The notes: a model not told the origin generated them from the letters alone. A stretch of DNA of 64,000 bases from Minisyncoccota bacterium (GCA_041661795.1 JBAZTS010000005.1:768-64767), one strand, 5' to 3'. Shown: positions 1 through 64,000, counted from the stretch's first letter. A program made the numbers and translations.

Positions 1-1480
1 GGGAGCTGGAACACCCGCTTTGGTTGTTTCCGGTTCAACTGATGCCAATGGAATCGTTAGATTCTCTAACGGTGCCGGATTGTTCAACGTTGTTCCAGGA
101 ACATCTGTCTATATAACTCTTAAAGGTGATATAGCTTCGGATGGATCCGGAACTTCCGGAGCCGACTCTGGAGACAATTTGAGATTGGCCTTGTACATGG
201 CTGATGACAACGCTGTTCAGGACTTTAGAGCTGTTGGTGTAAGTTCATCTACTGCTCTTCAGGAAGCTGACGCAGCTACCAACAACACAGCTCCAGTTAT
301 CGCTAACTTAACGTATGCCGATAACGTTGCTAACGTTGACGGAGACCTTGACACGACATTTATCGCCGGAAGCGATACTATTGTCAGAAAGTCAAAGCCA
401 ACTGTTGTCTCTACAGCCACAGCTGGAAGCTTGAGCAATGGTGATGACACCTTGCTTGAGTACACAATTTCAGCTACTGGTTCTGATGACGTAGCTCTAA
501 AGAGATTCCTCTTCAACTACTCTGAGACAGGAACATTCACATCTTCTGACTTCAAATTCTTTGAAGGAGGAACTGATATTACTTCTCAGGTAGCTATGAG
601 AGCTGTTGGTGACTTTGATGCCAACGGAGCTTTGGATCTGGAACAAGACATTGATTCAACCGCCGGTGACATTGGTGTTACCGATGGAGGATCAGCTATT
701 GTTTCCGTTACATTTACCAATGAGAAAACAATCTCATCTGGTTCATCCAAGACATTCTCTTTGAGATCATCTGTTGCCGGAGCCGGAACTGGAGAATCTA
801 TAACCGTTTCAATGAGAAACGACACGGTTAACGGAGGAACCACAACCGCTTTGGGACAGTACAGAGACATTGATGTCTACCTAAACACAACTGTAGCTTC
901 TGACTTCATCGCTGGTGGAGCCGAAGTTCTTAGTGTGTTCTGGGACTTGGACGGAGATGCCGTCTTAGATGCTACTGACCCATCAATCGTTGAAGCTGGA
1001 TTTACCGATGGTGCTAACCATGCAACCGCCGGTGAAGCTGTAAGCACATTCAACGTAAGATTAACTGGAGCTTGCGCCCTTCTTACAGAAGGAGGTGGAG
1101 CTGACACATTCACATTTGATGCTGATTGTGACGGAGCCATTGATGCAACGGAAATTACCATTGCAACTGGTGCTAGCGGTCTTACTAACGAGGCCTACAC
1201 GACCATCAACGACTTGAGACCTTACGCTTGGAGAACTGCAGCGGACACAGTGTTATATCTTGATATCAACGGCAGTGCTGCCGATGATGCCACAGAGCCA
1301 ACATTTGTTGTTCTTACAGGACACACAGCTACCGTTTCAGCTGGTGTTGTTTCCAATTTTGTTTGGTCTGATTCTTCAGCCGACATTCACGCTGAGAACA
1401 CTGCTGATTGGGCTAACGGATTTTACGTTAACGCTTCAGCTAGTTCGCTTTCTAACGTGAAGAAGACCTTGTCTTTGTAA
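1..1480 (+). CDS. Large Thr/Ser/Gly/Asp-rich surface (S-layer/adhesin-like) protein, 5'-partial. The reading frame stays open to base 2, so the gene begins upstream of the window.
   Basis: Open frame from the window edge to TAA at 1478-1480. Low-complexity T/S/G/D/A-rich composition with motifs shared with the 1717..4419 protein (TDANG, DGSG...GDN). A rho-independent terminator follows. Confidence 0.6.
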   Translation, partial: GAGTPALVVSGSTDANGIVRFSNGAGLFNVVPGTSVYITLKGDIASDGSGTSGADSGDNLRLALYMADDNAVQDFRAVGVSSSTALQEADAATNNTAPVIANLTYADNVANVDGDLDTTFIAGSDTIVRKSKPTVVSTATAGSLSNGDDTLLEYTISATGSDDVALKRFLFNYSETGTFTSSDFKFFEGGTDITSQVAMRAVGDFDANGALDLEQDIDSTAGDIGVTDGGSAIVSVTFTNEKTISSGSSKTFSLRSSVAGAGTGESITVSMRNDTVNGGTTTALGQYRDIDVYLNTTVASDFIAGGAEVLSVFWDLDGDAVLDATDPSIVEAGFTDGANHATAGEAVSTFNVRLTGACALLTEGGGADTFTFDADCDGAIDATEITIATGASGLTNEAYTTINDLRPYAWRTAADTVLYLDINGSAADDATEPTFVVLTGHTATVSAGVVSNFVWSDSSADIHAENTADWANGFYVNASASSLSNVKKTLSL

Positions 1481-1504
1481 ACTTGTTTACAGGACAGGCA
1501 AAAC

Positions 1505-1536
1505 AAAAACTCCCGTAAAAGGGAGTTTTTGTTTTT
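1505..1536 (+). terminator. Rho-independent terminator
   Basis: aaaaactccc-gtaaaa-gggagttttt hairpin followed by a T-run, directly after the stop at 1480. Confidence 0.7.
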
Positions 1537-1716
1537 ATAGGTTTATTTTAGTTATCCACATCTTTCTTAACTTATTTTGTTTTTTGATATATAATATATT
1601 AGTAAAAAATAGTTTTTAATCGCTATAAGGTCGATGCCTCTTTGGCTATGTTCACAGCGAATTTGAATTTGTCGGTATAAAATAAAAAATAATAAAATTA
1701 ATTAAAAAAAATAAAC

Positions 1717-4419
1717 ATGAATAAATTTGTGAAATTTTCAGTGATTGGATTTATGATTCTCTCCACTGTTATGTGGTCAGCCGGTTCGGCTTTAGCTGTA
1801 TCTGTTGCCGCCGATTATACCAAAAGTGATGTTGCCACTAATACGATTGGCAGAGGAGATACCAATCAATTGGTGTTTAACGTTCTTTTAAACAACGATG
1901 TTCTTATTACTAATGGAGGTGGCGCTTCTGCTGCTGGAAATGCATTGGCAACTTTACAAGGAGCCACTGATCCCGTTTTTGTTGACGGAACTTCAAATGA
2001 CAATACTTATACTAACGGTGAAGCAGTTATCTACAGCGTTGACTTAACATTGGATGCCGGAGTATTGAGCGGAGCCGGAACCGATGATGTTTTAATCGCC
2101 GGTCCGTCTGACATCAAACCTTTTCCGGGGACTATTTATGGTCTTGATGCCGCTGCCGGTACGGACGGTGCTTACGATGCTGGAGAAGTTCTTATTTCTT
2201 CCGCTGATACAAATTTGACTAACGGTGATACGGTTGTTACCGCCGGTACGGCTGATGTGACAAATTTTATTGCCGCTGATGGTGTGCTGTTTGATGATGG
2301 TGCTGAATGGGACACAGGAGTGGATGATATATTTATTGATTCTGATAATGACGATGTTTATACAACCGCAGCCGATGCATTGATTGATAATAATGCCGAT
2401 GCGCCAGCTGCTGGAGCGACAACATTTGATGTTGTGGCCGGTGATCAACTTTGTTCCGATAATGTCGTTGGAACTTTAGCGACCGCTGTCTGGACTTATA
2501 CAGGTACTGGAGCAGATGTTACCGCCTGTACAGCTGATGATGTAGTGGGAGTTCAGTATCTGGGGGCTGGAGCAGCCGCCGGTGGAACTTTGATAGTAAC
2601 CGGAATGAACTGGGCAAGCTCCGATAACGTTTTGGATGGAACAACTGATTTGTACGAAGAAAATGTTGCCGAGCAGTTAACTTACTCTGCCGCTGCTGAT
2701 GTTGTTCTTTATAATGGATCAGGAACTTTGACTTTAGGAGATGCCGGTTCAGAAATGGGTGTTGCTGATGCCGAAGCTATATATTTGGATTCTGATCATG
2801 GTGGTACCTACACCAATGGTGAACCAATAATTGATTTAGGAAATGGAAACACATTGGCTGATGATGGTAACTTGCCATTGACAGCAATATTTCTTGCTAA
2901 AGCCACAGGTAACTGGACGGTTGATTGGACAGCTATGAATGCTGCGGCCAATGCCGATATTGGATACGCTGACGCTAACCACGGTTCAACATTTACAACT
3001 GGAGAGGCGGTTATTATGGAAGCTGCCGCGGCTGCGACAGATACCATACTTGAAACAACCGATGTGGTGACTTCAACTGGTTCTGCGGAACTTACTCAAT
3101 TTCCCGTGGGTTTTAGATATGTAGATGTTGGAGGGGCTAACTATGATGCCGCTGATGACATTTATTTTGAGAACGACAACTCTGGAGATGGAGATAACGT
3201 TGTAGATAAACTTCAACTAAACTCTATTACGGTTCAAAATGCCGGAACAGCTGTTTTCAACGATATTGCCGCTGTTCATGTCTGGTGGGACGCTGACAGC
3301 AATGCAATATTAAACCCTGCCTTGGACACCGATTTAGGCGCAATGACAGCCGATGCTAATGGATGGGCGCTAACAGGACTTACTCAAGCTCTTTCGACTG
3401 TCAACTCAAGATTGTTTGTCTCGGTAAATATTTATTCAGGAGCCGATGACAACAGAACAATTCAGATGAGAATTCCATTAAGAGTTGATACTAATGCCAA
3501 TGGAACTTATGACGCAGGTGATGAAGGTATATTTGTTGATGCCGCTTCAACTGTTGGTGACGGACCAAGCGATGTCCTTATACTTAACGCCAACGTTCTT
3601 ACAATTGATGTTCCCTCTTCCACTGGTTCTGGTGGAGACATAACTCCTCCATCTGCTCCTTCTGGAGTCAGTGCGCAAGGAACTGGAATTGCAAATGAAA
3701 TAAAATTGATGTGGACTAATCCAACTGCTTCCGATTTTGCCGGAGTCAGAATATTCAGATCTCAGACATCGGGAAATGCGGTAGCTAATGGAGCTATTGT
3801 AGTGGTTTCCACAACTGGAACTTCTTACACGGATACCAACCTTGCTAATGGTTCTACTTACTACTATGTACTAAGGGCCATGGACAATACTGGTAACTAT
3901 ACAAATTCTTCTGAGGTTAGCGCTGTAGCCGGAAGTCAACCATCAAGCACAACGACTACAACTTCTACTTCTACAACTGCTACTTCAACAGAAGGAACGA
4001 CCACAACAACTACAACAACCACAACGACCACAACTCCTCCTGCTACGCTTCCTTATCCAAACCCAACCACTGTTGAACAGATGCAGGCAAATATTGTGGT
4101 TTTGCTGGCTCAATTATCTTTCTTACAGACCCAGTTAAGCCAAGCTCAGGAAACTGGAACGGAGCTTCCTCCTTTGGCTAAAGTTTATGTCTTTAACACT
4201 AACTTTGGACAAGGAATCAGAAGTGGCACGGTTACAAATCTCCAGACCATTTTGGCTCATGAGGGACTTTATGAGGTTAAATACATAACAGGATATTTTG
4301 GTCCTATTACCAAAGCAGCCGTTATAAAATTCCAAGCCAAATACGGAATTTCTCCTCAGAGCGGATATGTTGGACCTTTGACTAGAGCTCAACTTAGTAA
4401 GCTCTACGGAGGTAATTAA
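1717..4419 (+). CDS. Secreted cell-surface protein: signal peptide, T/D/G/A-rich repeat region, FN3-like module, poly-Thr linker and a C-terminal peptidoglycan-binding (PG_binding_1-like) domain
   Basis: N-terminal MNKFVKFSVIGFMILSTVMWSAGSALA signal-like sequence. FN3-like segment PPSAPSGV...LMWTNP...YYYVLRAMDNTGN. T-rich linker TTTTSTSTTATSTEGTTTTTTTTTTTTTPP. C-terminal ...TNLQTILAHEGLYEVKYITGYFGPITKAAVIKFQAKYGISPQSGYVGPLTRAQL matches the PG-binding fold. No SD, as is common in this genome. Confidence 0.75.
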   Translation: MNKFVKFSVIGFMILSTVMWSAGSALAVSVAADYTKSDVATNTIGRGDTNQLVFNVLLNNDVLITNGGGASAAGNALATLQGATDPVFVDGTSNDNTYTNGEAVIYSVDLTLDAGVLSGAGTDDVLIAGPSDIKPFPGTIYGLDAAAGTDGAYDAGEVLISSADTNLTNGDTVVTAGTADVTNFIAADGVLFDDGAEWDTGVDDIFIDSDNDDVYTTAADALIDNNADAPAAGATTFDVVAGDQLCSDNVVGTLATAVWTYTGTGADVTACTADDVVGVQYLGAGAAAGGTLIVTGMNWASSDNVLDGTTDLYEENVAEQLTYSAAADVVLYNGSGTLTLGDAGSEMGVADAEAIYLDSDHGGTYTNGEPIIDLGNGNTLADDGNLPLTAIFLAKATGNWTVDWTAMNAAANADIGYADANHGSTFTTGEAVIMEAAAAATDTILETTDVVTSTGSAELTQFPVGFRYVDVGGANYDAADDIYFENDNSGDGDNVVDKLQLNSITVQNAGTAVFNDIAAVHVWWDADSNAILNPALDTDLGAMTADANGWALTGLTQALSTVNSRLFVSVNIYSGADDNRTIQMRIPLRVDTNANGTYDAGDEGIFVDAASTVGDGPSDVLILNANVLTIDVPSSTGSGGDITPPSAPSGVSAQGTGIANEIKLMWTNPTASDFAGVRIFRSQTSGNAVANGAIVVVSTTGTSYTDTNLANGSTYYYVLRAMDNTGNYTNSSEVSAVAGSQPSSTTTTTSTSTTATSTEGTTTTTTTTTTTTTPPATLPYPNPTTVEQMQANIVVLLAQLSFLQTQLSQAQETGTELPPLAKVYVFNTNFGQGIRSGTVTNLQTILAHEGLYEVKYITGYFGPITKAAVIKFQAKYGISPQSGYVGPLTRAQLSKLYGGN

Positions 4420-53860: not shown

Positions 53861-55339
53861 ATGAAGGAGCTCTTTAGTAGAAAATTTGGAATTAAAGAAT
53901 ATCACCAGGGACTTTTGGATAAAGAGTTTTCCGTAACCGAAGCCATTTCGGAGTTTTTTGGTTTTATAAAAAAAGAAGATGAAAATATCGGAGCTTTTTT
54001 GAAAGTTATGGAAGAGGATGGAATTTCAAAGGCCAAAGAACTTGATAAGAAATTATCTTCCGATAATCAGATTTCAGAAATGTTTGGAGTGCCTATGGCT
54101 ATAAAAGACAATATTTTAATAGATGGATTTCAAGCCACCGCCGCTTCAAAAATTTTGGAAAATTATGTGGCTTCTTATGATGCTACGGTTATAAAGAATT
54201 TGAAAAATAGCGACGCTGTTTTCTTGGGAAAAACCAATCTGGATGAATTTGCCATGGGGGCATCAACCGAATATTCGGCTTTTAAACAAACCAGAAATCC
54301 TTTGGATTTATCAAAGGTTCCCGGGGGTTCTTCTGGGGGTTCGGCTGCGGCTGTGGCGGCTAATATGACTTTGGGGGCTTTGGGGTCCGACACTGGGGGA
54401 TCCATAAGACAACCGGCTGGATTTTGCGGAGTCGTTGGACTAAAGCCGACATACGGAGCTGTTTCAAGATATGGAGTCATTTCCTTGGCTTCAAGCTTGG
54501 ATCAGGTTGGGCCTTTTGCTAAAAGCGTTGCCGATGCCGCTTTGATTTTCAAAACCATAGCCGGTCAGGATAATTTTGATTCAACTTCCAATAAAATTAA
54601 TTGGTCGTCTGTTGATGAATATAAAAAAGAAGATGTTAAAAAACTTAAAATTGGAGTACCTAAAGAATATTTTGTTAAGGGTATGAACCCAAAAGTAGAG
54701 AAAGCAATTTGGGATGTTGTGGAGAAATTTAAAAAAGATGGATTTGATGTTAGAGAAGTATCTTTACCAAACAGCAAACACGCTATTTCTTGTTATTATA
54801 TAATCTTGCCAGCCGAGGCCAGCGCCAATTTGGCCAGGTATGATGGAATAAGATATTCGGATGTTAAGGAGTTAAAAGGAAAAGAATTGGGGCTTTTGGA
54901 TTATTATTTAAAACAAAGAGGACTTGGAATCGGAGACGAACCAACAAGAAGAATTCTTCTTGGAACGTTTGTTTTATCTTCTGGGTATTATGACGCTTAC
55001 TATTCTAAAGCCCAAAAAGTAAGAAGGTTAATATTTGAAGATTTTGCGAAAGTTTTTGACGACAAGAATGACGGAGTTGATGTAATCATAACTCCGGTTT
55101 CTCCATCAACCGCTTTTGGAATAGGGGAGAAGAAAGATGATCCGCTCTCAATGTATCTTGAAGATGTGTTTACTTTGCCTATAAATCTATCAGGGCTTTG
55201 CGGACTTTCTTTGCCGGTAGAAAATCCGGAAACATTTAGTAAAGAAAATATGCCAATAAACTTCCAGATTGTAGGACGTCATTTTGAAGAGAAGAATATT
55301 TTAGGACTAGGAAGATATTATGAAGAGGAATTAAAATAA
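53861..55339 (+). CDS. gatA: Asp/Glu-tRNA amidotransferase subunit A (amidase family)
   Basis: Amidase signature GGSSGGSAAAVAANMTLGALGSDTGGSIRQPA with the Ser-cisSer-Lys triad context. Confidence 0.9.
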   Translation: MKELFSRKFGIKEYHQGLLDKEFSVTEAISEFFGFIKKEDENIGAFLKVMEEDGISKAKELDKKLSSDNQISEMFGVPMAIKDNILIDGFQATAASKILENYVASYDATVIKNLKNSDAVFLGKTNLDEFAMGASTEYSAFKQTRNPLDLSKVPGGSSGGSAAAVAANMTLGALGSDTGGSIRQPAGFCGVVGLKPTYGAVSRYGVISLASSLDQVGPFAKSVADAALIFKTIAGQDNFDSTSNKINWSSVDEYKKEDVKKLKIGVPKEYFVKGMNPKVEKAIWDVVEKFKKDGFDVREVSLPNSKHAISCYYIILPAEASANLARYDGIRYSDVKELKGKELGLLDYYLKQRGLGIGDEPTRRILLGTFVLSSGYYDAYYSKAQKVRRLIFEDFAKVFDDKNDGVDVIITPVSPSTAFGIGEKKDDPLSMYLEDVFTLPINLSGLCGLSLPVENPETFSKENMPINFQIVGRHFEEKNILGLGRYYEEELK

Positions 55340-55359: not shown

Positions 55360-55366
55360 AATTGTG

Positions 55367-55441
55367 CGGACCGAACGGGATTTGAACCCGTGATCTTCTC
55401 CTTGACAAGGAGACATGTTAACCAGGCTACACCATCGGTCC
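55367..55441 (-). tRNA. tRNA-Asp (anticodon GUC)
   Basis: Reverse complement GGACCGATGGTGTAGCCTGGTTAACATGTCTCCTTGTCAAGGAGAAGATCACGGGTTCAAATCCCGTTCGGTCCG. Anticodon loop TTGTCAA, T-arm ACGGG-TTCAAAT-CCCGT, 7-bp acceptor. Confidence 0.85.
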
Positions 55442-55547
55442 ATAACAAAAACAGTTTACCAATTTTTTGAGATAAATCAATATCAAAATAACCCTATTCA
55501 TCCCACCAAATAAAAATTACCCATAAACGAGTAATTTTTATTACATG

Positions 55548-55619
55548 TTGCGGGAGCCGGAATTGCACCGGCGATCTCAAGGTTATGGGCCTTGCGAGAT
55601 ACTACTTCTCCATCCCGCG
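55548..55619 (-). tRNA. Initiator-like tRNA (anticodon CAU) with atypical features; possible tRNA pseudogene or non-canonical tRNA
   Basis: Reverse complement CGCGGGATGGAGAAGTAGTATCTCGCAAGGCCCATAACCTTGAGATCGCCGGTGCAATTCCGGCTCCCGCAA. It has the C1xA72 mismatch and a CGCGGG start typical of bacterial tRNA-fMet with anticodon CAT. However, the D-loop lacks G18G19, position 33 is C, and the T-loop reads TGCAATT (G at 55). Confidence 0.4.
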
Positions 55620-55702
55620 ATAATAGTTTTGTGATTATATCAGCAAATATCAGGCATTTCAATACTTGATACTTTTGAGTTTTGATTTTATACTCTTTTT
55701 AT

Positions 55703-55774
55703 GCCGACGTAGCTCAATGGTGGAGCAGGGCTTTCATAAGGCCAAGGTTACAGGTTCGACTCCTGTCGTCGGTA
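55703..55774 (+). tRNA. tRNA with anticodon CAU (elongator Met or lysidine-modified Ile2)
   Basis: GCCGACGTAGCTCAATGGTGGAGCAGGGCTTTCATAAGGCCAAGGTTACAGGTTCGACTCCTGTCGTCGGTA. Canonical D-arm (GCTC/GAGC, GG in loop), anticodon loop TTCATAA, T-arm ACAGG-TTCGACT-CCTGT, and a 7-bp acceptor with G1-U72. Confidence 0.75.
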
Positions 55775-55870
55775 CTAGTAACTTTATTCATTTATTATCG
55801 TTTTTATACTTAACGGGACATCCTTTAAATAGCTCGTTTATTAGCGAGCTTCCTGTTGTTTTGCAAAAAT

Positions 55871-57766: not shown

Positions 57767-57795
57767 TTGACTTTTGTCTAGTACTATGCTATAAT
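57767..57795 (+). promoter_or_regulatory. Sigma-70-like promoter (TTGACT-17 nt-TATAAT) upstream of the small secreted Cys-protein gene
   Basis: ttgact tttgtctagtactatgc tataat. Near-consensus hexamers with a 17-nt spacer, about 45 nt upstream of the ATG at 57842. Confidence 0.55.
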
Positions 57796-57841
57796 GGCAG
57801 TATTAGAAGTAAAAGGCCGCAGATTTAAGAATTCAAAAAAT

Positions 57842-58102
57842 ATGAAAAAGTTATCAATGTTGGTAGGGATTATGACTGTTTTGGGCATTATGTCTATAGC
57901 GATCGCTCAAGCCAGACCTGTTTCCAGACAGCCAAGATTTATTGATCTCAGGCCTTCTCAAAAGCTTTGTCTGGCGGTTATGACTCCAGCTGTCAACGTG
58001 AGAACGGGAGAATGTAAAACATTTAGTAATTCATGTATTCCGGATGGATGGGTAAGAGCAGATTTTTCCAGTAGGTGCTCATATCCTGAATCTGATAGAT
58101 AA
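57842..58102 (+). CDS. Small secreted cysteine-containing protein
   Basis: Signal peptide MKKLSMLVGIMTVLGIMSIAIAQA and 4 Cys in an ~60-aa mature part. Followed by a strong terminator. Confidence 0.55.
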   Translation: MKKLSMLVGIMTVLGIMSIAIAQARPVSRQPRFIDLRPSQKLCLAVMTPAVNVRTGECKTFSNSCIPDGWVRADFSSRCSYPESDR

Positions 58103-58111
58103 AACAAAAAC

Positions 58112-58140
58112 AAAAAAGCGACCTTGGGTCGCTTTTTTGT
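58112..58140 (+). terminator. Rho-independent terminator
   Basis: aaaaaagcgacc-ttg-ggtcgctttttt, a GC stem with flanking A and T runs. Confidence 0.8.
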
Positions 58141-58188
58141 TGCTGGTTTTTATGGAAACAGTGATATAAAATGCTGTTATTTGGGGTA

Positions 58189-58217
58189 TTGTAAAAAAAC
58201 TACGAGTATGGTATAAT
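58189..58217 (+). promoter_or_regulatory. Sigma-70-like promoter (TTGTAA-17 nt-TATAAT) at the AT-rich side of the compositional boundary, pointing into GC-rich block A
   Basis: ttgtaa aaaaactacgagtatgg tataat. The downstream ~160-nt leader is GC-rich with an 8-bp hairpin (tttttcgc-taac-gcgaaaaa, 58255..58274) and the direct repeat GCGAGACGAA x2. Confidence 0.4.
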
Positions 58218-58379
58218 TGATTCAGAAACTGGGAGATTGGCTTCCAGTAGGCCCTTTTTCGCTAACGCGAAAAAGAGGTTAACTGTTCTTTAACATACCT
58301 AACTACAAACGACGAAAGTCGAGCGAGACGAAATCCGCCTACGCTTGAGAAAGCTACGGCGAGACGAAGGGAGGCGGTC

Positions 58380-59594
58380 ATGAACCGCAATCGCAAGAGC
58401 GTGTGGATCGTTACTGTCATGGCGGTCGCGATCGCCATGATCAACATTAACCTGGTGGAGGCAGTTACGCCTCTCACCAGACAGTGGATTCCTTCTGTGG
58501 GATCCGGCTCGGGTATCAACTCGGCGCAGTGGCGGACGACGGTGTGGATTCACAACCCGTCGTCGGTTTCCACCGCCAACGTGGAAGTTTCTTTCTTCGA
58601 GAGGGGATCTTCCATCGGCGTTCCTCTGGTGGTTGTTACTCTCCAGGTTCTTTCTGGGGAGGCGATGACCCACCAGAACTTTATGTCGGATGTCCTGAGA
58701 GTATCAAAGTACGGATCTCTCAGGTTCGTTTCCGACATCCCTGTGTCGGTGCGTTCGCGCATCTACAATGCCAACAGCCCCACTCCTTCGGGAGCTGGGA
58801 CTGCTGGTCAAGCGTTTGACGGCATCAACGAGAACGATGCCGTCGGAGTTGGCCAAAGCGTGACGCTCCAGTCGGTCCCCACAACTTCCGATTTCCGTTT
58901 CAACTTCGGATTCATAGAAGTGGGCGGAACTGAGACGACTGTCCGGGCCCAGAGGATCAATTCCCTGGGACAGCCCGTCGGTGGTGACCGGGTCTACCTG
59001 GCTGGCGAGTATCAGGCCAACCAATTCCCGGTGAGCGATCTTTCCGTTACCACTACCGACATCGGCAGTAGTAACGATCAGATCAAGATGACCGTCACCC
59101 AAGGGGGACGGATCATCGCCTTTGGGTCTCTTGTGGACAACAAGACGGGGGACCCTACCACGGTGACACAGGAGTCACCGCTGGTCCGACCGGGAGTGTA
59201 CAGCTATACCATCCGCGACTCCCAGAACGGCGCCGTGAAGGGGACTCTGATCCTCAACGTGGCTATTGTTGAGGGAGTTCCTACGATGGTGAAGATGAGA
59301 ACCATATACTTGTGCGAGTGCGGACGGAATTGGTACTTCTACATCGACAACAGTGGCACGCCATTCTCTTTACCTATGACAAGCGGAGTGGGGGCTACTG
59401 AAGTAAGCGTCGGTCCCCCTTATGTTGAATTCTGGCTTGGGTGGGTACCGACAGTAAACCCAGATGGCACGGGGGGAGGATACGCCGATTATATGATCAA
59501 GAGCACCAATGCTCCTTGGTCTGAGTGTAATCTACTAACCACCACTCATGATCTTGTGGGAGGGTGGAGTGAACCTCTTCCGGCTGAGCAGTAG
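58380..59594 (+). CDS. Secreted protein of unknown function encoded in GC-rich block A
   Basis: SD gaagggaggcggtc-ATG and signal peptide MNRNRKSVWIVTVMAVAIAMININLVEA. 404 aa, GC-rich codon usage unlike the host genome, no recognisable family, C-terminal Cys cluster (CECGRNWYFY...C). Confidence 0.6.
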   Translation: MNRNRKSVWIVTVMAVAIAMININLVEAVTPLTRQWIPSVGSGSGINSAQWRTTVWIHNPSSVSTANVEVSFFERGSSIGVPLVVVTLQVLSGEAMTHQNFMSDVLRVSKYGSLRFVSDIPVSVRSRIYNANSPTPSGAGTAGQAFDGINENDAVGVGQSVTLQSVPTTSDFRFNFGFIEVGGTETTVRAQRINSLGQPVGGDRVYLAGEYQANQFPVSDLSVTTTDIGSSNDQIKMTVTQGGRIIAFGSLVDNKTGDPTTVTQESPLVRPGVYSYTIRDSQNGAVKGTLILNVAIVEGVPTMVKMRTIYLCECGRNWYFYIDNSGTPFSLPMTSGVGATEVSVGPPYVEFWLGWVPTVNPDGTGGGYADYMIKSTNAPWSECNLLTTTHDLVGGWSEPLPAEQ

Positions 59595-59778
59595 TGTAGT
59601 TAGGTAACAAGTTCTCAAAAGGGGTGTCTCGCAAGAGCACCCCTTGAGCTTTTTATATTGTTTTAATTCTCTAAATGTGATTTAATATATAATAGAAACC
59701 AAGAGATTGTCTCTTGGTATAGCACATTAACAAGTCGTGTGATCTGGGTGAGACATCCCCGGAAAGGAGGTGAGAAGA

Positions 59779-59925
59779 ATGGGGAACGAAAAGCGCCAGA
59801 AGTGGGCGGAGGATCGCCAGAAGCGTTACGAGCCCAAGGGACCCAAGACCGACAAGGGAGGCGGTCGCGAAAGGAATGTTGGTCATCCCAAGGGGGAGGA
59901 ACACAGTCGCGTCAGCAAGAAGTAG
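59779..59925 (+). CDS. Small hydrophilic basic protein (48 aa), possibly KGG/stress-protein-like
   Basis: Strong SD ggaaaggaggtgagaagaATG and translation MGNEKRQKWAEDRQKRYEPKGPKTDKGGGRERNVGHPKGEEHSRVSKK. Followed by a ggggcga...tcgcccc hairpin. Not in the ORF track because it is under 60 aa. Preferred over the antisense hydrophobic ORF 59671..59943. Confidence 0.4.
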   Translation: MGNEKRQKWAEDRQKRYEPKGPKTDKGGGRERNVGHPKGEEHSRVSKK

Positions 59926-59932
59926 CACCATG

Positions 59933-59954
59933 GGGGCGAGCAAATGTTCGCCCC
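59933..59954 (+). terminator. GC-rich hairpin (ggggcga-gcaaatgt-tcgcccc) at the end of GC-rich block A
   Basis: A perfect 7-bp GC stem just after the stop of the small ORF, followed by an AT-rich stretch. Confidence 0.45.
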
Positions 59955-59991
59955 TGCTATTATTATATGGTATATTATTGGAAATACTTAT

Positions 59992-61248
59992 ATGAACGTT
60001 AAAGTAAAAAAATTAAAAAATGGATTTAAAATTATTTATTTGCCTTTTGACAACTTTTCTTCAACCGTCATTAGACTTCTTGTTCCGGCGGGTTCATTTT
60101 TGGACGGCAAACGACATGGATTGGCACACATGGTGGAGCATATGGCAACCAAATGGATTGAAAATAGGATACACGACATTACAAGCACTGTATGGGCCGC
60201 CGATCATCTTGTCACTCATTTTGAATCCGGAATAAATCGTCAATACGCATATTTTAGCTTTGATGTTCACCACAAAGACGCCAAACGCGTAGTTAATATA
60301 TTAAGAGATATGCTTATTTTAGACAAAATTTCATTGGGTGATTTAACGGGAGAAAAAAATATTATACTTTCCGAAATTCGCGACTCAATTGATTCTTCCT
60401 CATACAACTTTGAAAAAGACGCAAGTATATCACTGGGAGACATATTAGGAGTGGCGCACCCCGTGCTTGGATATTCTTCTTCTGTAAGACGTTTTACTAA
60501 CAAGATCATAAATAACTTTTTTGTTCATTATTATCAGAATACTAGCGCGATTCTTGTGGTTTCGGGTAAGGTGACATCTGACATACAAAAAGAAATAGAA
60601 ACATCTTTTAATAATGCCCATCTAACACCATCCACATCTCACTTTGTTGGTCTCAGAACTCTTCTTAAGCGATCCCGATTTCATATTGTGAATAATTTTA
60701 CGCGTCAATCTTATTGCACAATATTTTATCCTCTTCCTGTAAAAAATTTAAACGAGTTACTTGTGTGGAAATTTGTCGGTTTTGTGTTATATGATTACCT
60801 ACGTTACGTTTTAAGAGAAAATGGATATATTTCATATTCTACCGATGTTGACGTGGAGGATCTTTGGCAGCGCCCAGTATTAGCGGTAAGATTTTCTGTT
60901 GAGGTTAATAAAATGACGCACGCTTTACAACTCTGGCAAGATGCTTTATCTAAATTCTCGGATGTATTTACACAACACGAATATATAATCGCTCTCAGGG
61001 CTTATATTCAGGAAATAGAGCTTGATAAAGATTACCCAATTACACAGGCAAAAAATTTTGGTCATTACGCAATGCTATTTGGCCTAAATTCGGTACAAAA
61101 CATTAAGCGGGAGAACTATAAAAAATTGTTTTCTCAAAAAAGAGTTATAAAAAATATTCACACAATAATGCAAAATCCACACTTTCTTCATATTGTGGCA
61201 TCAAAAAAACGACTAGACGAGAAGAAATTACGCAAAGATTTTATATAA
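59992..61248 (+). CDS. M16-family (insulinase/pitrilysin-like) zinc metallopeptidase
   Basis: Inverted zinc-binding motif HxxEH in GLAHMVEHMATK near the N-terminus, typical of M16. The ORF-track start (59944) overlaps the upstream hairpin, so the internal MNVKVKKL is used. Confidence 0.6.
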   Translation: MNVKVKKLKNGFKIIYLPFDNFSSTVIRLLVPAGSFLDGKRHGLAHMVEHMATKWIENRIHDITSTVWAADHLVTHFESGINRQYAYFSFDVHHKDAKRVVNILRDMLILDKISLGDLTGEKNIILSEIRDSIDSSSYNFEKDASISLGDILGVAHPVLGYSSSVRRFTNKIINNFFVHYYQNTSAILVVSGKVTSDIQKEIETSFNNAHLTPSTSHFVGLRTLLKRSRFHIVNNFTRQSYCTIFYPLPVKNLNELLVWKFVGFVLYDYLRYVLRENGYISYSTDVDVEDLWQRPVLAVRFSVEVNKMTHALQLWQDALSKFSDVFTQHEYIIALRAYIQEIELDKDYPITQAKNFGHYAMLFGLNSVQNIKRENYKKLFSQKRVIKNIHTIMQNPHFLHIVASKKRLDEKKLRKDFI

Positions 61249-61285
61249 ATATAGAGACAATAAAAGTTTGGTTGTCGTTTACTAT

Positions 61286-61462
61286 ATGAAATTATTTTTA
61301 ATTCGTCATGGAGAAACCGAAGAATCTAAAAAAGGCATATTGCTCGGACATCTTTCAGGGCGTTTAACTGTTAGAGGAAAAAGGGAAATGTTGAATGTTG
61401 CTAAGAAAATAGAAAAACTAAATCCGGATATAATATTTTCAAGTGATTTAAAAAGAGCTTAG
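61286..61462 (+). pseudogene. Truncated histidine-phosphatase (phosphoglycerate mutase-like) N-terminal fragment
   Basis: MKLFLIRHGETEESKKGIL... carries the catalytic RHG motif of the PGM/histidine phosphatase family but stops after ~58 aa. Intact members are ~200 aa. Confidence 0.5.
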
Positions 61463-61501
61463 GTGGTTTTTATTTAAGATAAAATATGTTTTACTTAAAT
61501 T

Positions 61502-62221
61502 ATGATAAGATTGCGTTTTTACGTAAATAAATCGCTAGATAAAAGAATGGTCAAAGAATTTATCAGTGTCCAAGCTGGAGGAGTAAATTTTGGTCAAAAT
61601 ATTATCAAATTACATCCCCGATTAAGATTTGATAGGTTAAACAAAAGATCACAGCCTAAAATCATTGATGATTATTTTGATGTTTACTATAAAATTCACA
61701 AAGAAAAAATAAAACGGAAAATTAACGAAATAAGAAGAGAATGGATTAAATGGGAGGAAAATTTCGTTTCCATTACAGAAAAATACTTTGGAGGTTTTAA
61801 ATTTTCTAAAGGAAGATATATAGCATATCCGTCAATCATAAATTGCAACCCACGTTTTCTTGATTCAAAAACATTTCAATTTTTCTATAAAAAAGAAATT
61901 CCGGATGCCGTTCATACTATAGCCCACGAACTTCTTCACTTTATATTCTTTGATTTTGTAAATAAAAAACTTCCTAAAATAAAACATGAACTTTCTGACG
62001 ATGAGTTATGGGACCTATCAGAAATATTTAATGTTGTTTTGTTGAGAATGCTATATAAAAACATTATAAATCATAGATATATTCATCCCTATCCTGATCA
62101 TAAAAAATATTTACGTGATATAATACAAACTTTTCTAAAATCCACCAATATAAAAGAATTTATTATAAAGAGTGCCAGCGTCATCAGACAAAGAAAAACA
62201 GAAATTAGAAGAGGGAGCTAA
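61502..62221 (+). CDS. Hypothetical protein with an HExxH motif (putative metalloprotease-like)
   Basis: HTIAHELLHFIFFDF. 239 aa with no other recognisable motifs. Convergent with the rSAM gene. Confidence 0.4.
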   Translation: MIRLRFYVNKSLDKRMVKEFISVQAGGVNFGQNIIKLHPRLRFDRLNKRSQPKIIDDYFDVYYKIHKEKIKRKINEIRREWIKWEENFVSITEKYFGGFKFSKGRYIAYPSIINCNPRFLDSKTFQFFYKKEIPDAVHTIAHELLHFIFFDFVNKKLPKIKHELSDDELWDLSEIFNVVLLRMLYKNIINHRYIHPYPDHKKYLRDIIQTFLKSTNIKEFIIKSASVIRQRKTEIRRGS

Positions 62222-62229
62222 AAGCTCCC
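62213..62229. terminator. Bidirectional stem-loop (gggagct-aaa-agctccc) between convergent genes, overlapping both stop codons
   Basis: A perfect 7-bp inverted repeat at the junction of the AT-rich segment and GC-rich block B. Confidence 0.55.
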
Positions 62230-62231
62230 TC

Positions 62232-63614
62232 TTAAGATCTGTTCTCTGCCACCCATTTCTCCTTCTGTTTCTCCCAAAGATCCTGAATGAGAAAAAGAGT
62301 GGCTGATTTCGCGTGCGCGCAGAAGCGCGTGTCCAGCGCTTCCAATGATCCAGTTAAGCGATATGCGTTGTAGGGACACCCACCTCCGCAGTTACCGAGT
62401 GCTAGACACCCGAGACATTCTTGGTTGCTCAACGGTGAGCGCCGTCTCCAGAGTTTCCAGAAAGGGTGCATCTCGGGTTGAAAGGTCTCCAGGGATTCTT
62501 CTACAAAGAACTCCTTTTGCCCGCAGAATGCTTGACACACTCCGATCTTTCCGTCTGGGCTTACGACCACCTGAAGACCACAACCTCCGCAGTCACTCAG
62601 AACTGGCGTCTTGTCTATAAAGTTGCGAACTCGCCTCATCATCCTATCTTCATAGACGCCTCTCTCACGAGCGATTTTAAAGCACTCAATAAGTTCTTGA
62701 GCAATGGTTTCTGCATAGTCATGGTTTCCATGACCATCTCCATCGTTTTCAATGAGAATATTGAATCCCATCCCCTTAGCACCAAGTTCATCGGTGAGCC
62801 AGGTTACTATCTCCCTCATGTGTGAGAGATTGTGACGATCGACAGTGACGCAAACTCCAGTGTGCACACCCATCTGCTGAGCGAGACGGTAGGAACGAAT
62901 TACATCATCAAACGTTCCTTCGCCGGTAGAGTAAACCCGCATTTGATCGTGAATCTCTTTCGGCCCGTCTATGGAGATAGCAACTACTGCGCCGCTCTCC
63001 TTACACGAAGTCAAAATCTCTTCGTCAAGAAGAATACCGTTGGTATTCAGGGTAACTCCCATGCTTTGTGGAAGTACTTCCGCTTCCTTGTTCTCCTTGA
63101 TGTACTGCAGAACTTCAAGGAGGACCTTACGATTCAGCGTTGGTTCACCTCCGTAGATGACTATCTGCTGGTCGGTATGTCCCTTGGCAATACTCCTCTT
63201 CACACACCTAGCAAAGAAATCGATAGCAGCATGCGCCGTCTCCGACTTCATTTGTGAAAAGCGGTAGTGAGGAGGCATATTGGCCAAGAAATAGCAGTAC
63301 CGACAACGGATATTGCAAGCATCAGAAAGAAGTAGATAAAGGATGTTGATGGATGGATCGTCTAACGCTTTCTGATACTCCCGATAATGTTCACATCCGT
63401 CATCATTCTCTGCTAGGAGAAAACCCAATGACTGGAGCGATTCCAGGAGTTGCTCTGACTCAGCGTCAGATGACGTGAACCAACCATCTTCTTGACACTG
63501 TTTCACGGTCGATGCTTTGATAAACACTGTTTCCAAGTCAAGGCTGTGATACAATGCCACGTACTCCTCATCTACCGGAATGATGTACAGGAAAGGACTT
63601 TGTTGTAGTCTCAC
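62232..63614 (-). CDS. Radical SAM enzyme with a C-terminal SPASM domain: a RiPP maturase of the SCIFF/ranthipeptide (or anSME-like) type
   Basis: GTG start preceded by SD AAGGAGGT. CxxxCxxC motif in DACNIRCRYCYF, glycine-rich SAM motif IYGGEPTL, and a C-terminal Cys cluster CGGCGLQVVVSPDGKIGVCQAFCG...CLGCLALGNCGGGCPYNA (twitch/SPASM auxiliary clusters). Roughly 50% GC. Confidence 0.8.
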   Translation of the reverse strand: MRLQQSPFLYIIPVDEEYVALYHSLDLETVFIKASTVKQCQEDGWFTSSDAESEQLLESLQSLGFLLAENDDGCEHYREYQKALDDPSINILYLLLSDACNIRCRYCYFLANMPPHYRFSQMKSETAHAAIDFFARCVKRSIAKGHTDQQIVIYGGEPTLNRKVLLEVLQYIKENKEAEVLPQSMGVTLNTNGILLDEEILTSCKESGAVVAISIDGPKEIHDQMRVYSTGEGTFDDVIRSYRLAQQMGVHTGVCVTVDRHNLSHMREIVTWLTDELGAKGMGFNILIENDGDGHGNHDYAETIAQELIECFKIARERGVYEDRMMRRVRNFIDKTPVLSDCGGCGLQVVVSPDGKIGVCQAFCGQKEFFVEESLETFQPEMHPFWKLWRRRSPLSNQECLGCLALGNCGGGCPYNAYRLTGSLEALDTRFCAHAKSATLFLIQDLWEKQKEKWVAENRS

Positions 63615-63641
63615 TTTAAACCTCCTTTCTTTTTAGAAAGT

Positions 63642-63669
63642 TGGGGGTGGCATAACTCAACCACCCCCA
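63642..63669 (-). promoter_or_regulatory. Intercistronic GC hairpin (9-bp stem tgggggtgg/ccaccccca) between the precursor peptide gene and the rSAM gene; candidate attenuator or partial terminator
   Basis: Perfect 9-bp stem with a 10-nt loop, located 20 nt downstream of the precursor stop and ahead of the maturase SD. Confidence 0.55.
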
Positions 63670-63688
63670 TTCCTAATTTCTGTTTCAC

Positions 63689-63841
63689 CTACTTGCTCGA
63701 CTTGCACGGCGTGCAACGGCATGAGCTACAAGATGTGCAGTCGCACGGGCGGGAATTGACCGCTTCGTTGAGATCGATCCTCCCGACGATCTTCGAGCGT
63801 GTTTCCGCCGCAGGAACTACGAGAACATTGGCTTTACTCAT
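63689..63841 (-). CDS. RiPP precursor peptide with six cysteines in the C-terminal 14 residues (SCIFF/ranthipeptide-like)
   Basis: SD GGAGGTG 8 nt before ATG. Translation MSKANVLVVPAAETRSKIVGRIDLNEAVNSRPCDCTSCSSCRCTPCKSSK (50 aa). The ORF track extends to an upstream GTG. Immediately upstream of a radical SAM/SPASM gene on the same strand. Confidence 0.7.
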   Translation of the reverse strand: MSKANVLVVPAAETRSKIVGRIDLNEAVNSRPCDCTSCSSCRCTPCKSSK

Positions 63842-63901
63842 TCTCATCACCTCCTCTCTGGGGAAAGAATCACCCGACCTCACAACTTGTTAATGTGCTA
63901 T

Positions 63902-63954
63902 ATCCAGAGCCAATCTCTGGATTTCTAAGATTATATTAAATCATATTTTGTCAA
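63902..63954 (-). promoter_or_regulatory. Putative promoter region for the precursor-maturase operon with a perfect 8-bp palindrome in the leader
   Basis: On the minus strand: TTGACA (63949-54), a 13-nt spacer, TATAAT (63930-35), then the inverted repeat atccagag-ccaat-ctctggat (63902..63922) between the -10 and the SD. The short spacer keeps confidence low. Confidence 0.35.
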
Positions 63955-64000
63955 AAACAACAATAAGAATTTCTTGTATTACTAGTAGTTCCGTTTACCC

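Follow-up and report, generated by a model that had tools for sequence, protein, structure and literature searches.

We examined a 64,000-nucleotide (nt) stretch (GCA_041661795.1, JBAZTS010000005.1:768-64767; the whole stretch is here called the window) from a bacterium of the candidate phyla radiation (CPR), annotated as Candidatus Paceibacterota and with an ABC transporter closest to that of Wolfebacteria (76–77%), in which two GC-rich blocks lie in an otherwise AT-rich sequence near the 3′ end. In our best explanation, which as a whole we hold to be about 60% probable, the region at ~58.15–63.97 kb is an accessory island of the chromosome, built on a compact three-gene cluster for a ribosomally synthesized and post-translationally modified peptide (RiPP) that is widespread in CPR and consists of a precursor, a radical SAM (rSAM) maturase and a 239-amino acid (aa) protein (p239). 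The GC-rich patches would be four genes wired to copies of one promoter/leader, and the mosaic would have two layers: an old, family-wide contrast of precursor and rSAM versus p239, and a later, lineage-specific addition of a 404-aa protein (p404), perhaps together with a 48-aa basic open reading frame (ORF; basic48). The switch in composition at 62.2 kb, as it has been kept through complete synonymous turnover, would be an old gene-specific boundary inside one co-inherited cluster and not an integration junction.

Sharp switches in GC at third codon positions (GC3) are routinely read as scars of recent transfer, and here one of them sits between co-inherited genes of a single cluster. Since it has survived complete synonymous turnover in many lineages, island callers based on composition would misdate the locus and misplace its limits. 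What is new is that three GC-rich transcription units appear to share a duplicated module of promoter, 5′ hairpin and Shine-Dalgarno (SD) site.

A GC mosaic at synonymous sites

Composition was measured in sliding windows across the 64 kb, and GC3 was compared per ORF with 49 native ORFs. The GC-rich blocks, which an earlier note on this DNA had pointed out, are real: block A (58255–59955) has a GC content of 0.535, the AT-rich middle (59956–62209) 0.315 and block B (62210–63900) 0.484, versus 0.351 in the reference part (4500–58000), and none of the 570 sliding 1-kb windows in 1–58000 exceeded 0.465. Native GC3 is 0.311 ± 0.037 (range 0.24–0.42), from which four genes deviate, namely p404 (58380–59594, + strand; GC 0.55, GC3 0.65, z 9.2), basic48 (59779–59925, +; GC3 0.73, z 11.5), rSAM (62232–63614, −; 460 aa, GC 0.48, GC3 0.50, z 5.2) and the 50-aa precursor (63689–63841, −; MSKANVLVVPAAETRSKIVGRIDLNEAVNSRPCDCTSCSSCRCTPCKSSK; GC3 0.67, z 9.7). 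The genes between the blocks lie at or below the native value (M16 peptidase 0.30, histidine-phosphatase remnant 0.23, p239 0.22). The shift is one of synonymous sites and is present in every codon class, with C- over T-ending and G- over A-ending codons, fourfold sites, CGN arginine and CTN leucine codons all concerned.

All four switches, at about 58255, 59955, 62210 and 63900, coincide with hairpins or terminators in our scans and folds, as the same note had stated. At the first, there are two hairpins at 58224–58250 and 58250–58280 (+), the second of which lies in the long 5′ untranslated region (UTR) of p404 and is terminator- or attenuator-like (fold; terminator-like match at 58239–58253). 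The second switch falls at the intrinsic terminator 3′ of basic48 (59931–59956, +; 11 pairs in the terminator scan), the third at a bidirectional terminator between the convergent p239 and rSAM genes (62209–62233; terminator scan) and the fourth at a leader hairpin (63900–63926). The contrast in translation signals holds as well: GGAGG stands 6–8 nt 5′ of the start codon in 4/4 GC-rich genes, whereas a 5-mer SD core was found in only 1–2 of the 54 native ORFs of the window, even when any start within the first 30 codons was allowed.

The mosaic is not an assembly chimera, since the island is 100% identical in three assemblies, two from unrelated Logan runs (SRR6484324 and SRR18595301) and one a metagenome-assembled genome (MAG) from NCBI (GCA_041664185.1, JBAYLG010000005.1); the argument against random chimerism made beforehand is thus borne out. 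The matching contigs showed 100%, 100% and 99.987% identity to the window, the sole two mismatches being in the PPDK gene (50775 and 51105). That GC-rich reads of another organism had been joined into a CPR contig might be suggested by the abruptness of the switches, by their position at hairpins and by the ends of both Logan contigs, which terminate 26 nt beyond the window end at a strong hairpin, CCCCCACACTAATTCTATTAGTGTGGGGG (15620–15650 of contig L003, about 64000–64030 in window coordinates). Yet the identity extends across all four junctions in the three assemblies, the NCBI contig reads through that hairpin and continues for 5 kb beyond the window end in DNA of native composition (0.32–0.42 GC) with the gene of a large PKD-domain protein, leader copies extend across the junctions, and the same gene order and contrast recur in dozens of independent assemblies of related clusters, so that we give such a chimera practically no credence.

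Two other places in the window have a raised GC. At 1–4419, ORFs of 486 aa (beginning 20 nt from the window start) and 900 aa show a GC of 0.44–0.46, which is due to codon positions 1 and 2 (0.49–0.53), that is, to amino acid composition; their GC3 is native (0.30–0.37), and they are not foreign DNA. The 900-aa ORF begins with a hydrophobic stretch, which suggests a secreted protein. A spike of 0.50–0.53 at 54200–54500 lies inside gatA, at the conserved Gly/Ser/Ala-rich amidase signature GGSSGGSAAAVA, and it is likewise an amino acid effect, with native GC3.

A RiPP cluster with an old GC contrast

The rSAM protein carries CNIRCRYC at residues 100–107, the cysteines of which are invariant in 20 homologues, and matched Pfam PF04055 (E 2e-19; 70.8 bits versus a cut-off of 29.5), which places it in the radical SAM superfamily. 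C342, C345, C360, C364, C400, C403, C409, C413 and C432 of its C-terminal part are invariant too; NCBIfam rSAM/SPASM models align to it through residue ~447, while no Pfam SPASM match was obtained at E ≤ 0.01. Its best NCBIfam model was the FibroRumin maturase TIGR04136 (residues 18–447, E 3e-81). With 273.7 bits versus an equivalog cut-off of 400, it does not belong to the FibroRumin equivalogs, nor, with 149 versus 340 bits for PapB (NF047865) and 130 versus 425 for ScfB (TIGR03974), to the ranthipeptide/SCIFF maturases; CefB was also a weaker match, far below its cut-off.

The precursor, whose C-terminus is PCDCTSCSSCRCTPCKSSK, has a six-cysteine core that is kept across the family (ARPCDCTACGSCRCTPCK), and no model of NCBIfam or Pfam matched it. 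A homologue was found in 45 of the sequences searched, always within the cluster and upstream of either rSAM or p239, as expected of a RiPP gene cluster. The third gene, p239 (61502–62221, +; GC 0.28, without SD), was recognized by synteny and invariant columns: the HExxH residues H142, E143 and H146 are invariant in 15 orthologues, of which 14 matched Pfam DUF3267 (putative zincin peptidase), the best at a sub-threshold E of 0.0018. A p239 profile gave only noise against PDB sequences (E 0.23), and the single-sequence AlphaFold2 model (predicted local distance difference test score 40) was unusable. It is a putative zincin-type leader peptidase. Judging from motifs and family resemblance, the rSAM protein would most likely add thioether-type cross-links in the Cys-rich core of the precursor, and p239 would most likely remove its leader.

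The p239 search (tblastn) covered 105 sequences, that is, 104 fetched loci, 99 of them rSAM-related (L006–L104), and 44–64 kb of the window itself. Convergent neighbours of rSAM that match p239 turned up in 56 of the 105, distant clusters with rSAM of 35–37% and p239 of 25–35% identity included; if only fetched loci with an rSAM of at least 55% identity to ours are counted, the share is 38 of 44. Across 24 non-redundant loci (276 pairs), the pairwise identities of rSAM and p239 are correlated (r = 0.876, rho = 0.81), and thus the two genes are mostly co-inherited. In the commoner of two arrangements, a leader is followed by precursor and p239, convergent with rSAM behind its own leader, whereas in the window leader, precursor and rSAM are convergent with p239. 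In two CPR genomes a second rSAM/SPASM gene, with 24% identity to that of the window, lies 1.3–3.2 kb from the cluster (L009 5418–6806 and L011 4738–6138), which suggests neighbouring RiPP systems.

The GC contrast at 62.2 kb is a trait of this family. In the 24 non-redundant CPR loci, rSAM exceeded p239 in GC3 in 23 (mean +0.171; Wilcoxon p = 2.7e-5, which is optimistic as the loci are phylogenetically non-independent), and the difference is present in all codon classes. Compared with the GC3 of the locus background, taken from mechanically called ORFs in 17 loci (16 for the precursor), rSAM was higher in 14/17 (mean +0.108), the precursor was higher in 14/16 (mean +0.193) and p239 was lower in 12/17 (mean −0.057). 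No correlation was seen between the GC3 of rSAM and that of its host (rho 0.12). Extreme cases are L035 (rSAM 0.49, precursor 0.57, p239 0.14, host 0.18) and L026/L029 (0.56, 0.65, 0.27 and 0.26, respectively), and in the commoner arrangement the GC-rich precursor immediately precedes the AT-rich p239, both genes being on one strand. The SD signals follow: the 5-mer core precedes the precursor in 16/22 loci and rSAM in 17/24, and it is missing before p239 in 22/24, with 20/181 host ORFs carrying it in 16 CPR loci.

The contrast is also old. The closest relative, L059, has an rSAM that is 79% identical over the best tblastn segment (in codon alignments, 70% for the first 158 codons and 79% for the other 305), and its gene order is NUDIX, full-length histidine phosphatase and p239, convergent with rSAM, so that the order from phosphatase to rSAM is the same as in the window. 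Its GC drops from 0.49 to 0.35 at the same rSAM/p239 junction. Synonymous sites between the two are saturated in rSAM, p239 and phosphatase alike, with GC3 of 0.50/0.50 (window/L059) in rSAM, 0.22/0.37 in p239 and 0.19/0.34 in the phosphatase. Because the contrast persists at saturated synonymous sites, including versus L059, block B is not a recent import beside native DNA, and this part of the earlier note, which had counted shared GC-rich genes at a sister locus as evidence against import, has to be given up. The high GC3 of rSAM does not come from constraint on synonymous sites, a candidate that we rejected because the number of synonymous substitutions per site (dS) is similar in rSAM and p239 in most pairs (e.g. 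0.19/0.19, 0.52/0.48 and 1.10/0.97). Polarized synonymous changes in rSAM (290 GC>AT versus 255 AT>GC; a crude parsimony on 10 triplets) imply an equilibrium GC3 of 0.49, equal to the present value; the 0.37 implied for p239 is an overestimate through parsimony bias.

How, then, did the island come to the window? Each locus has other genes around the cluster, with a GC3 like that of the host, and in Wolfebacteria (L105–L109), the nearest relatives sampled, the order enolase...gatC-gatA...ABC transporter is kept, with the transporter followed by a 60-aa ORF, GreA and Pth and without the island; the island is accessory. The earlier note had proposed two separate, recent and unameliorated cassettes from a higher-GC donor on either side of a native AT-rich segment. 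The absence at the Wolfebacteria site is in keeping with it, as are the GC3 z-scores of 5–11 for four genes, the strong SD sites in a genome otherwise without them and the relatives of p404, which occur only on 67% GC contigs. On the other hand, p239, in the supposedly native segment, is a conserved and co-evolving partner of rSAM; the contrast is found in 23/24 orthologous loci and in L059 despite saturated dS; rSAM appears to be at compositional equilibrium; and its GC3 of 0.50 versus 0.65–0.73 for the other GC-rich genes does not fit one donor at one date. The domain searches of the island proteins revealed neither an integrase nor a transposase, and no direct repeats were found flanking the island. 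Moreover, rSAM gave >80 matches at 52–79% identity, most of them unnamed metagenome sequences, and the named close ones (58–79%) are all CPR/Patescibacteria, apart from one MAG binned as Nitrospirota; this exception aside, the named close relatives of the precursor and of p239 are CPR as well, and no close relative of rSAM came from a recognizably higher-GC donor lineage. We regard the two-cassette model as quite unlikely: transfer from a higher-GC donor is supported for block A, through p404, but not for block B.

Alternatively, the whole 5.8-kb island, with its mosaic already formed, could have been acquired once from another CPR genome, its composition being the baggage of a chimeric ancestor that hops too fast to ameliorate. 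The variable neighbours with host-like flanks would fit such hopping, and so would the independence of rSAM GC3 from host GC3, the empty syntenic site and a recombination at the level of modules in two pairs of loci (see below). Still, hopping would hit rSAM and p239 equally, so that a gene-specific force would be needed in any case, and the contrast persists between orthologues with saturated dS while rSAM looks to be at equilibrium. The order of phosphatase, p239 and rSAM in common with L059 suggests a long residence in the lineage, and p404, basic48 and M16 are found beside no other cluster. A one-step transfer of this kind is therefore unlikely in our view.

The promoter, leader and SD module

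Each of the three GC-rich transcription units begins with a copy of one leader. The first copy, the most diverged, has AGAAA and an 8-bp 5′ hairpin (58224–58250, +; motif count; fold −26.7 kcal/mol, z −4.0) behind a predicted p404 promoter at 58189–58217 (+), TTGTAA-17-TATAAT with TG of an extended −10 (TGGTATAAT; 10/12 matches in the promoter scan). Copy 2 (59656–59786, +) runs through an extended −10, AGAAA, a 9-bp hairpin, the box ATAGCACATTAACAAGT and the SD AGGAGGTGA to the ATG of basic48 (inverted repeats I1, I2 and I4, alignments and fold), and copy 3 (63834–63965, −) has promoter, AGAAA, 8-bp hairpin, conserved box and the same SD; it heads the operon of precursor and rSAM and is the right-hand boundary of the island. 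Copies 2 and 3 are 79–84% identical over 130 nt, from promoter through ATG. In the whole window the hairpin motif has exactly three occurrences, where 0.13 would be expected. Each copy folds into an 8–9-bp hairpin right after AGAAA, and four stem positions stay paired through changes on both sides, i.e. compensatory ones. Promoters on the AT-rich side had been proposed for both blocks, and that is where the predicted ones lie: the one at 58189–58217 was recovered by our scan, whereas that at 63930–63954 is better read, on inspection, as an extended −10 (TGnTAnnnT) common to the basic48 copy. From such a promoter, a transcript would open with the 8–9-bp hairpin and the long SD, and the three copies would drive precursor and rSAM, basic48, and the secreted, beta-rich p404.

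Family members show the same layout, with extended −10, hairpin, an AGCAC-containing box and AAAGGAGGTGA, a long SD that on the RiPP genes is an 11-nt perfect complement. In the commoner arrangement, rSAM and precursor each have a leader copy, so that the cluster is bracketed by inverted repeats. A single copy is the rule where precursor and rSAM form an operon, and the window, with its extra copies on basic48 and p404, is an exception. Such repeats were seen in L026 (1511–1788/4137–4414, 278 nt, 100%), L036 (1–231/2578–2808, at least 231 nt, 100%) and L007 (517–657/3037–3177, 141 nt, 95%), where they comprise the promoter-leader and an upstream palindrome (GCGAGCAAAAATT...AATTTTTTGCTCGC). They point to gene conversion and could permit the cluster to invert. 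A transposon-like nature of the cluster, with these as its terminal inverted repeats, was considered and rejected: the repeats vary in length (41–278 nt), each copy is a promoter-leader, and we saw no convincing duplication of a target site. Since leader copies are more alike within a genome than are orthologous copies between genomes, they evolve in concert, and the repeats are probably best read as concerted evolution of duplicated leaders. The conversion tracts stop about 5 nt into the coding regions.

In block A, p404 (with a GGAGG SD) starts with an N-terminal signal/anchor helix, followed by a beta-rich N-terminal domain (residues 33–262) of an uncharacterized family of high-GC bacteria. 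This domain could be modelled with confidence, and Foldseek against PDB returned nothing below E 0.005 and only generic beta-sandwiches. Among 5.8 billion proteins, 24 relatives were detected, the best with 38% identity over the N-terminal 57–67%, and the named ones belong to Acidobacteriota. Three contigs with such relatives have a GC of 0.67 and GC3 of 0.87–0.89, and the GC3 of p404 lies between these values and that of the host. Neither p404 nor M16 has a homologue in the 99 rSAM-related loci. As its relatives are found only in ~67% GC bacteria and it is absent beside other clusters, p404 was most likely imported from a high-GC donor and then fused to a copy of the RiPP leader. The p404 5′UTR contains, 3′ of its second hairpin, repeated CGAGACGAA-like motifs (58282–58379; cgacgaaagtcgagcgagacgaaa...ggcgagacgaaggg).

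The basic48 ORF, rich in Lys, Arg, Glu and Gly (MGNEKRQKWAEDRQKRYEPKGPKTDKGGGRERNVGHPKGEEHSRVSKK), stands where the main-clade arrangement of leader, precursor and p239 has its precursor. It had no tblastn match better than E 0.7 in the 104 loci and none at E ≤ 1 in Pfam or NCBIfam, and it forms a singleton cluster at 90%, present only on contigs of this organism. Its origin as a decayed precursor duplicate is unsupported, with homology stopping at the ATG and no convincing alignment of the ORF bodies. Like p404, it may perhaps be a lineage-specific addition.

What keeps these genes GC-rich? We tentatively suggest, at well under even odds, that the GC-rich, SD-bearing state belongs to a portable expression module (extended −10, 5′ hairpin, 11-nt SD and GC-rich coding region) and is actively maintained in SD-poor, AT-rich CPR genomes, where the genes plugged into it (precursor, maturase, p404 and basic48) would be held at an equilibrium GC3 of ~0.5–0.7 and the adjacent, co-inherited p239 would be held AT-rich and SD-less. 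If so, the cluster would have a built-in means of expressing its genes at very different levels, or else the pattern would be a footprint left by GC-biased gene conversion at a locus prone to recombination.

Another reading would do without any foreign donor, the genes on the module having been driven to high GC either by selection (on the stability of the mRNA or its translation in a host that is SD-poor and AT-rich) or by GC-biased gene conversion at a locus prone to recombination. Every leader-borne gene, in the window and in the family, is GC-rich, and p239, the sole cluster gene without a leader, is AT-rich; the near-perfect inverted leader copies point to active gene conversion, and rSAM sits at an equilibrium GC3 of about 0.49. 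Nevertheless, the conversion tracts end just inside the coding regions, and the p404 family is otherwise confined to high-GC bacteria. The enrichment of G-ending Lys, Glu and Gln codons and of CGN and CTN codons is not what translational selection usually leaves in an AT-rich genome, and no native ORF of the 49, housekeeping genes included (enolase and GatA at 0.30–0.32), exceeds a GC3 of 0.42, which also makes plain translational selection unlikely. A history without a donor is, in our judgement, decidedly improbable.

Several points weigh against the layered reading that we prefer. To the non-independence of the 24 loci and the crudeness of the equilibrium estimate it has to be added that lineages differ: some rSAM copies are decaying, as L032/L034 show 34 GC>AT versus 6 AT>GC changes. 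Recombination between rSAM and p239 does occur, because two pairs have diverged unequally, namely L043 versus L039 (rSAM protein identical, p239 87.7% identical) and L026 versus L036 (dS 0.50 in rSAM, 2.17 in p239), and a partial exchange of modules could contribute to the contrast. The relatives at the syntenic site are only 76–77% identical and show other rearrangements, which makes the comparison weak for dating. The nearest relatives of p404 are so distant (≤38%) that they pinpoint no donor, and the force that raises GC in precursor and rSAM could act on p404 as well. The orphan status of basic48 reflects so far the Pfam, NCBIfam, 90%-cluster and 104-locus searches, and the putative peptidase role of p239 its HExxH motif and sub-threshold Pfam matches. 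Promoters, transcription starts, hairpin function and co-regulation are predictions from sequence. Finally, there are several candidate causes of the maintained GC-richness: selection could act on expression or on mRNA properties, gene conversion could be GC-biased at a locus where recombination is active, or precursor–rSAM modules could be exchanged continually. In L043/L039, AT-rich stretches are generally more diverged than others (0.80–0.93 versus 0.96–1.00 identity).

Neighbouring features and known systems

The remaining features complete the island. Its left edge is the terminator hairpin (58109–58141, +; terminator scan and sequence) of a native gene for a secreted 102-aa protein; this ORF (57794–58102; 86 aa in the NCBI call) adjoins the island, is of native composition, has a signal peptide and several cysteines and gave no family match. 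An intrinsic terminator 3′ of p404 (59617–59655, +), AGGGGTG...CACCCCT followed by a T-run, was recognized by inspection. The M16 (insulinase-type) peptidase gene (59992–61248, +; Pfam PF00675, E 1e-9) has an HMVEH motif and no SD, and it is followed by the 64-aa histidine-phosphatase remnant (61268–61462, +), which covers only profile positions 1–56 of 194 in Pfam PF00300; both genes have host-type composition. As L059 has a full-length 173-aa gene at the same position (2147–2668, abutting p239; 69% identity to the remnant), the window appears to have lost ~330 bp of it. A GC-rich hairpin between precursor and rSAM (63643–63668, −; by inspection) may be an attenuator or a processing site, through which the ratio of precursor to enzyme could be set. 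An Rfam scan of leaders and island, at the gathering score and at E ≤ 1, gave nothing credible. Between gatA and the ABC transporter (55366–55775), 2.4 kb upstream of the island, there are three tRNA genes, one tRNA-Asp and two divergent tRNA-Met(CAT), the second tRNA-Met being below the Rfam gathering score.

The island resembles a classical genomic island in the deviant GC3 of four genes (z 5.2–11.5) and their translation signals, in its accessory content, in its absence at the Wolfebacteria site and in the nearby tRNA genes. Unlike such islands, it came without integrase, transposase or flanking direct repeats in our searches, its deviation goes gene by gene within one co-inherited cluster, and this deviation has been kept in different hosts and despite saturated synonymous sites, a persistence not predicted by amelioration theory. 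The recognizable promoter/leader could be used for finding co-regulated cargo, and the locus is a tractable case for asking what sets a gene-specific equilibrium GC.

5′-terminal stem-loops stabilize bacterial mRNAs, e.g. in the ompA and aprE leaders. The 8–9-bp hairpin of the window may be comparable, as it lies a few nt after the predicted −10 box, at a conserved position, with compensatory changes and a counterpart in the family. As an inverted repeat it may just as well be an operator in the DNA, and the island contains no regulator gene.

Concerning SD usage, a published survey (Tsurumaki et al. 2022, PMC9297842) could detect the anti-SD motif of 16S rRNA in no more than 48% of Parcubacteria. 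The scarcity of SD sites in the native ORFs of the window fits this loss of the anti-SD in about half of the group, whereas the RiPP genes carry their 11-nt SD complement; the 16S rRNA gene lies outside the window. If the host does lack the anti-SD, the conserved complement would be paradoxical and would need a new explanation, and the locus lends itself to asking what role strong SD sites play in Parcubacteria that make no use of them elsewhere.

Among RiPP systems, the closest likeness is to the FibroRumin, PapB, CefB and ScfB maturases: the alignment to TIGR04136 is full-length, a CxxxCxxC motif and C-terminal SPASM-type Cys clusters are present, and, as in FibroRumin-type systems, a short precursor with a Cys-rich C-terminal core is encoded directly upstream. 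No title or abstract concerning this cluster was found in the literature on CPR ranthipeptide/RiPP families and on FibroRumin. Unlike those systems, the maturase scores far below the equivalog cut-offs, the precursor matches no model and there is a fixed HExxH partner. The core PCDCTxCxSCRCTPCK, with its rSAM/SPASM maturase and this fixed partner, would thus define a separate RiPP family, nearly all named members of which belong to CPR.

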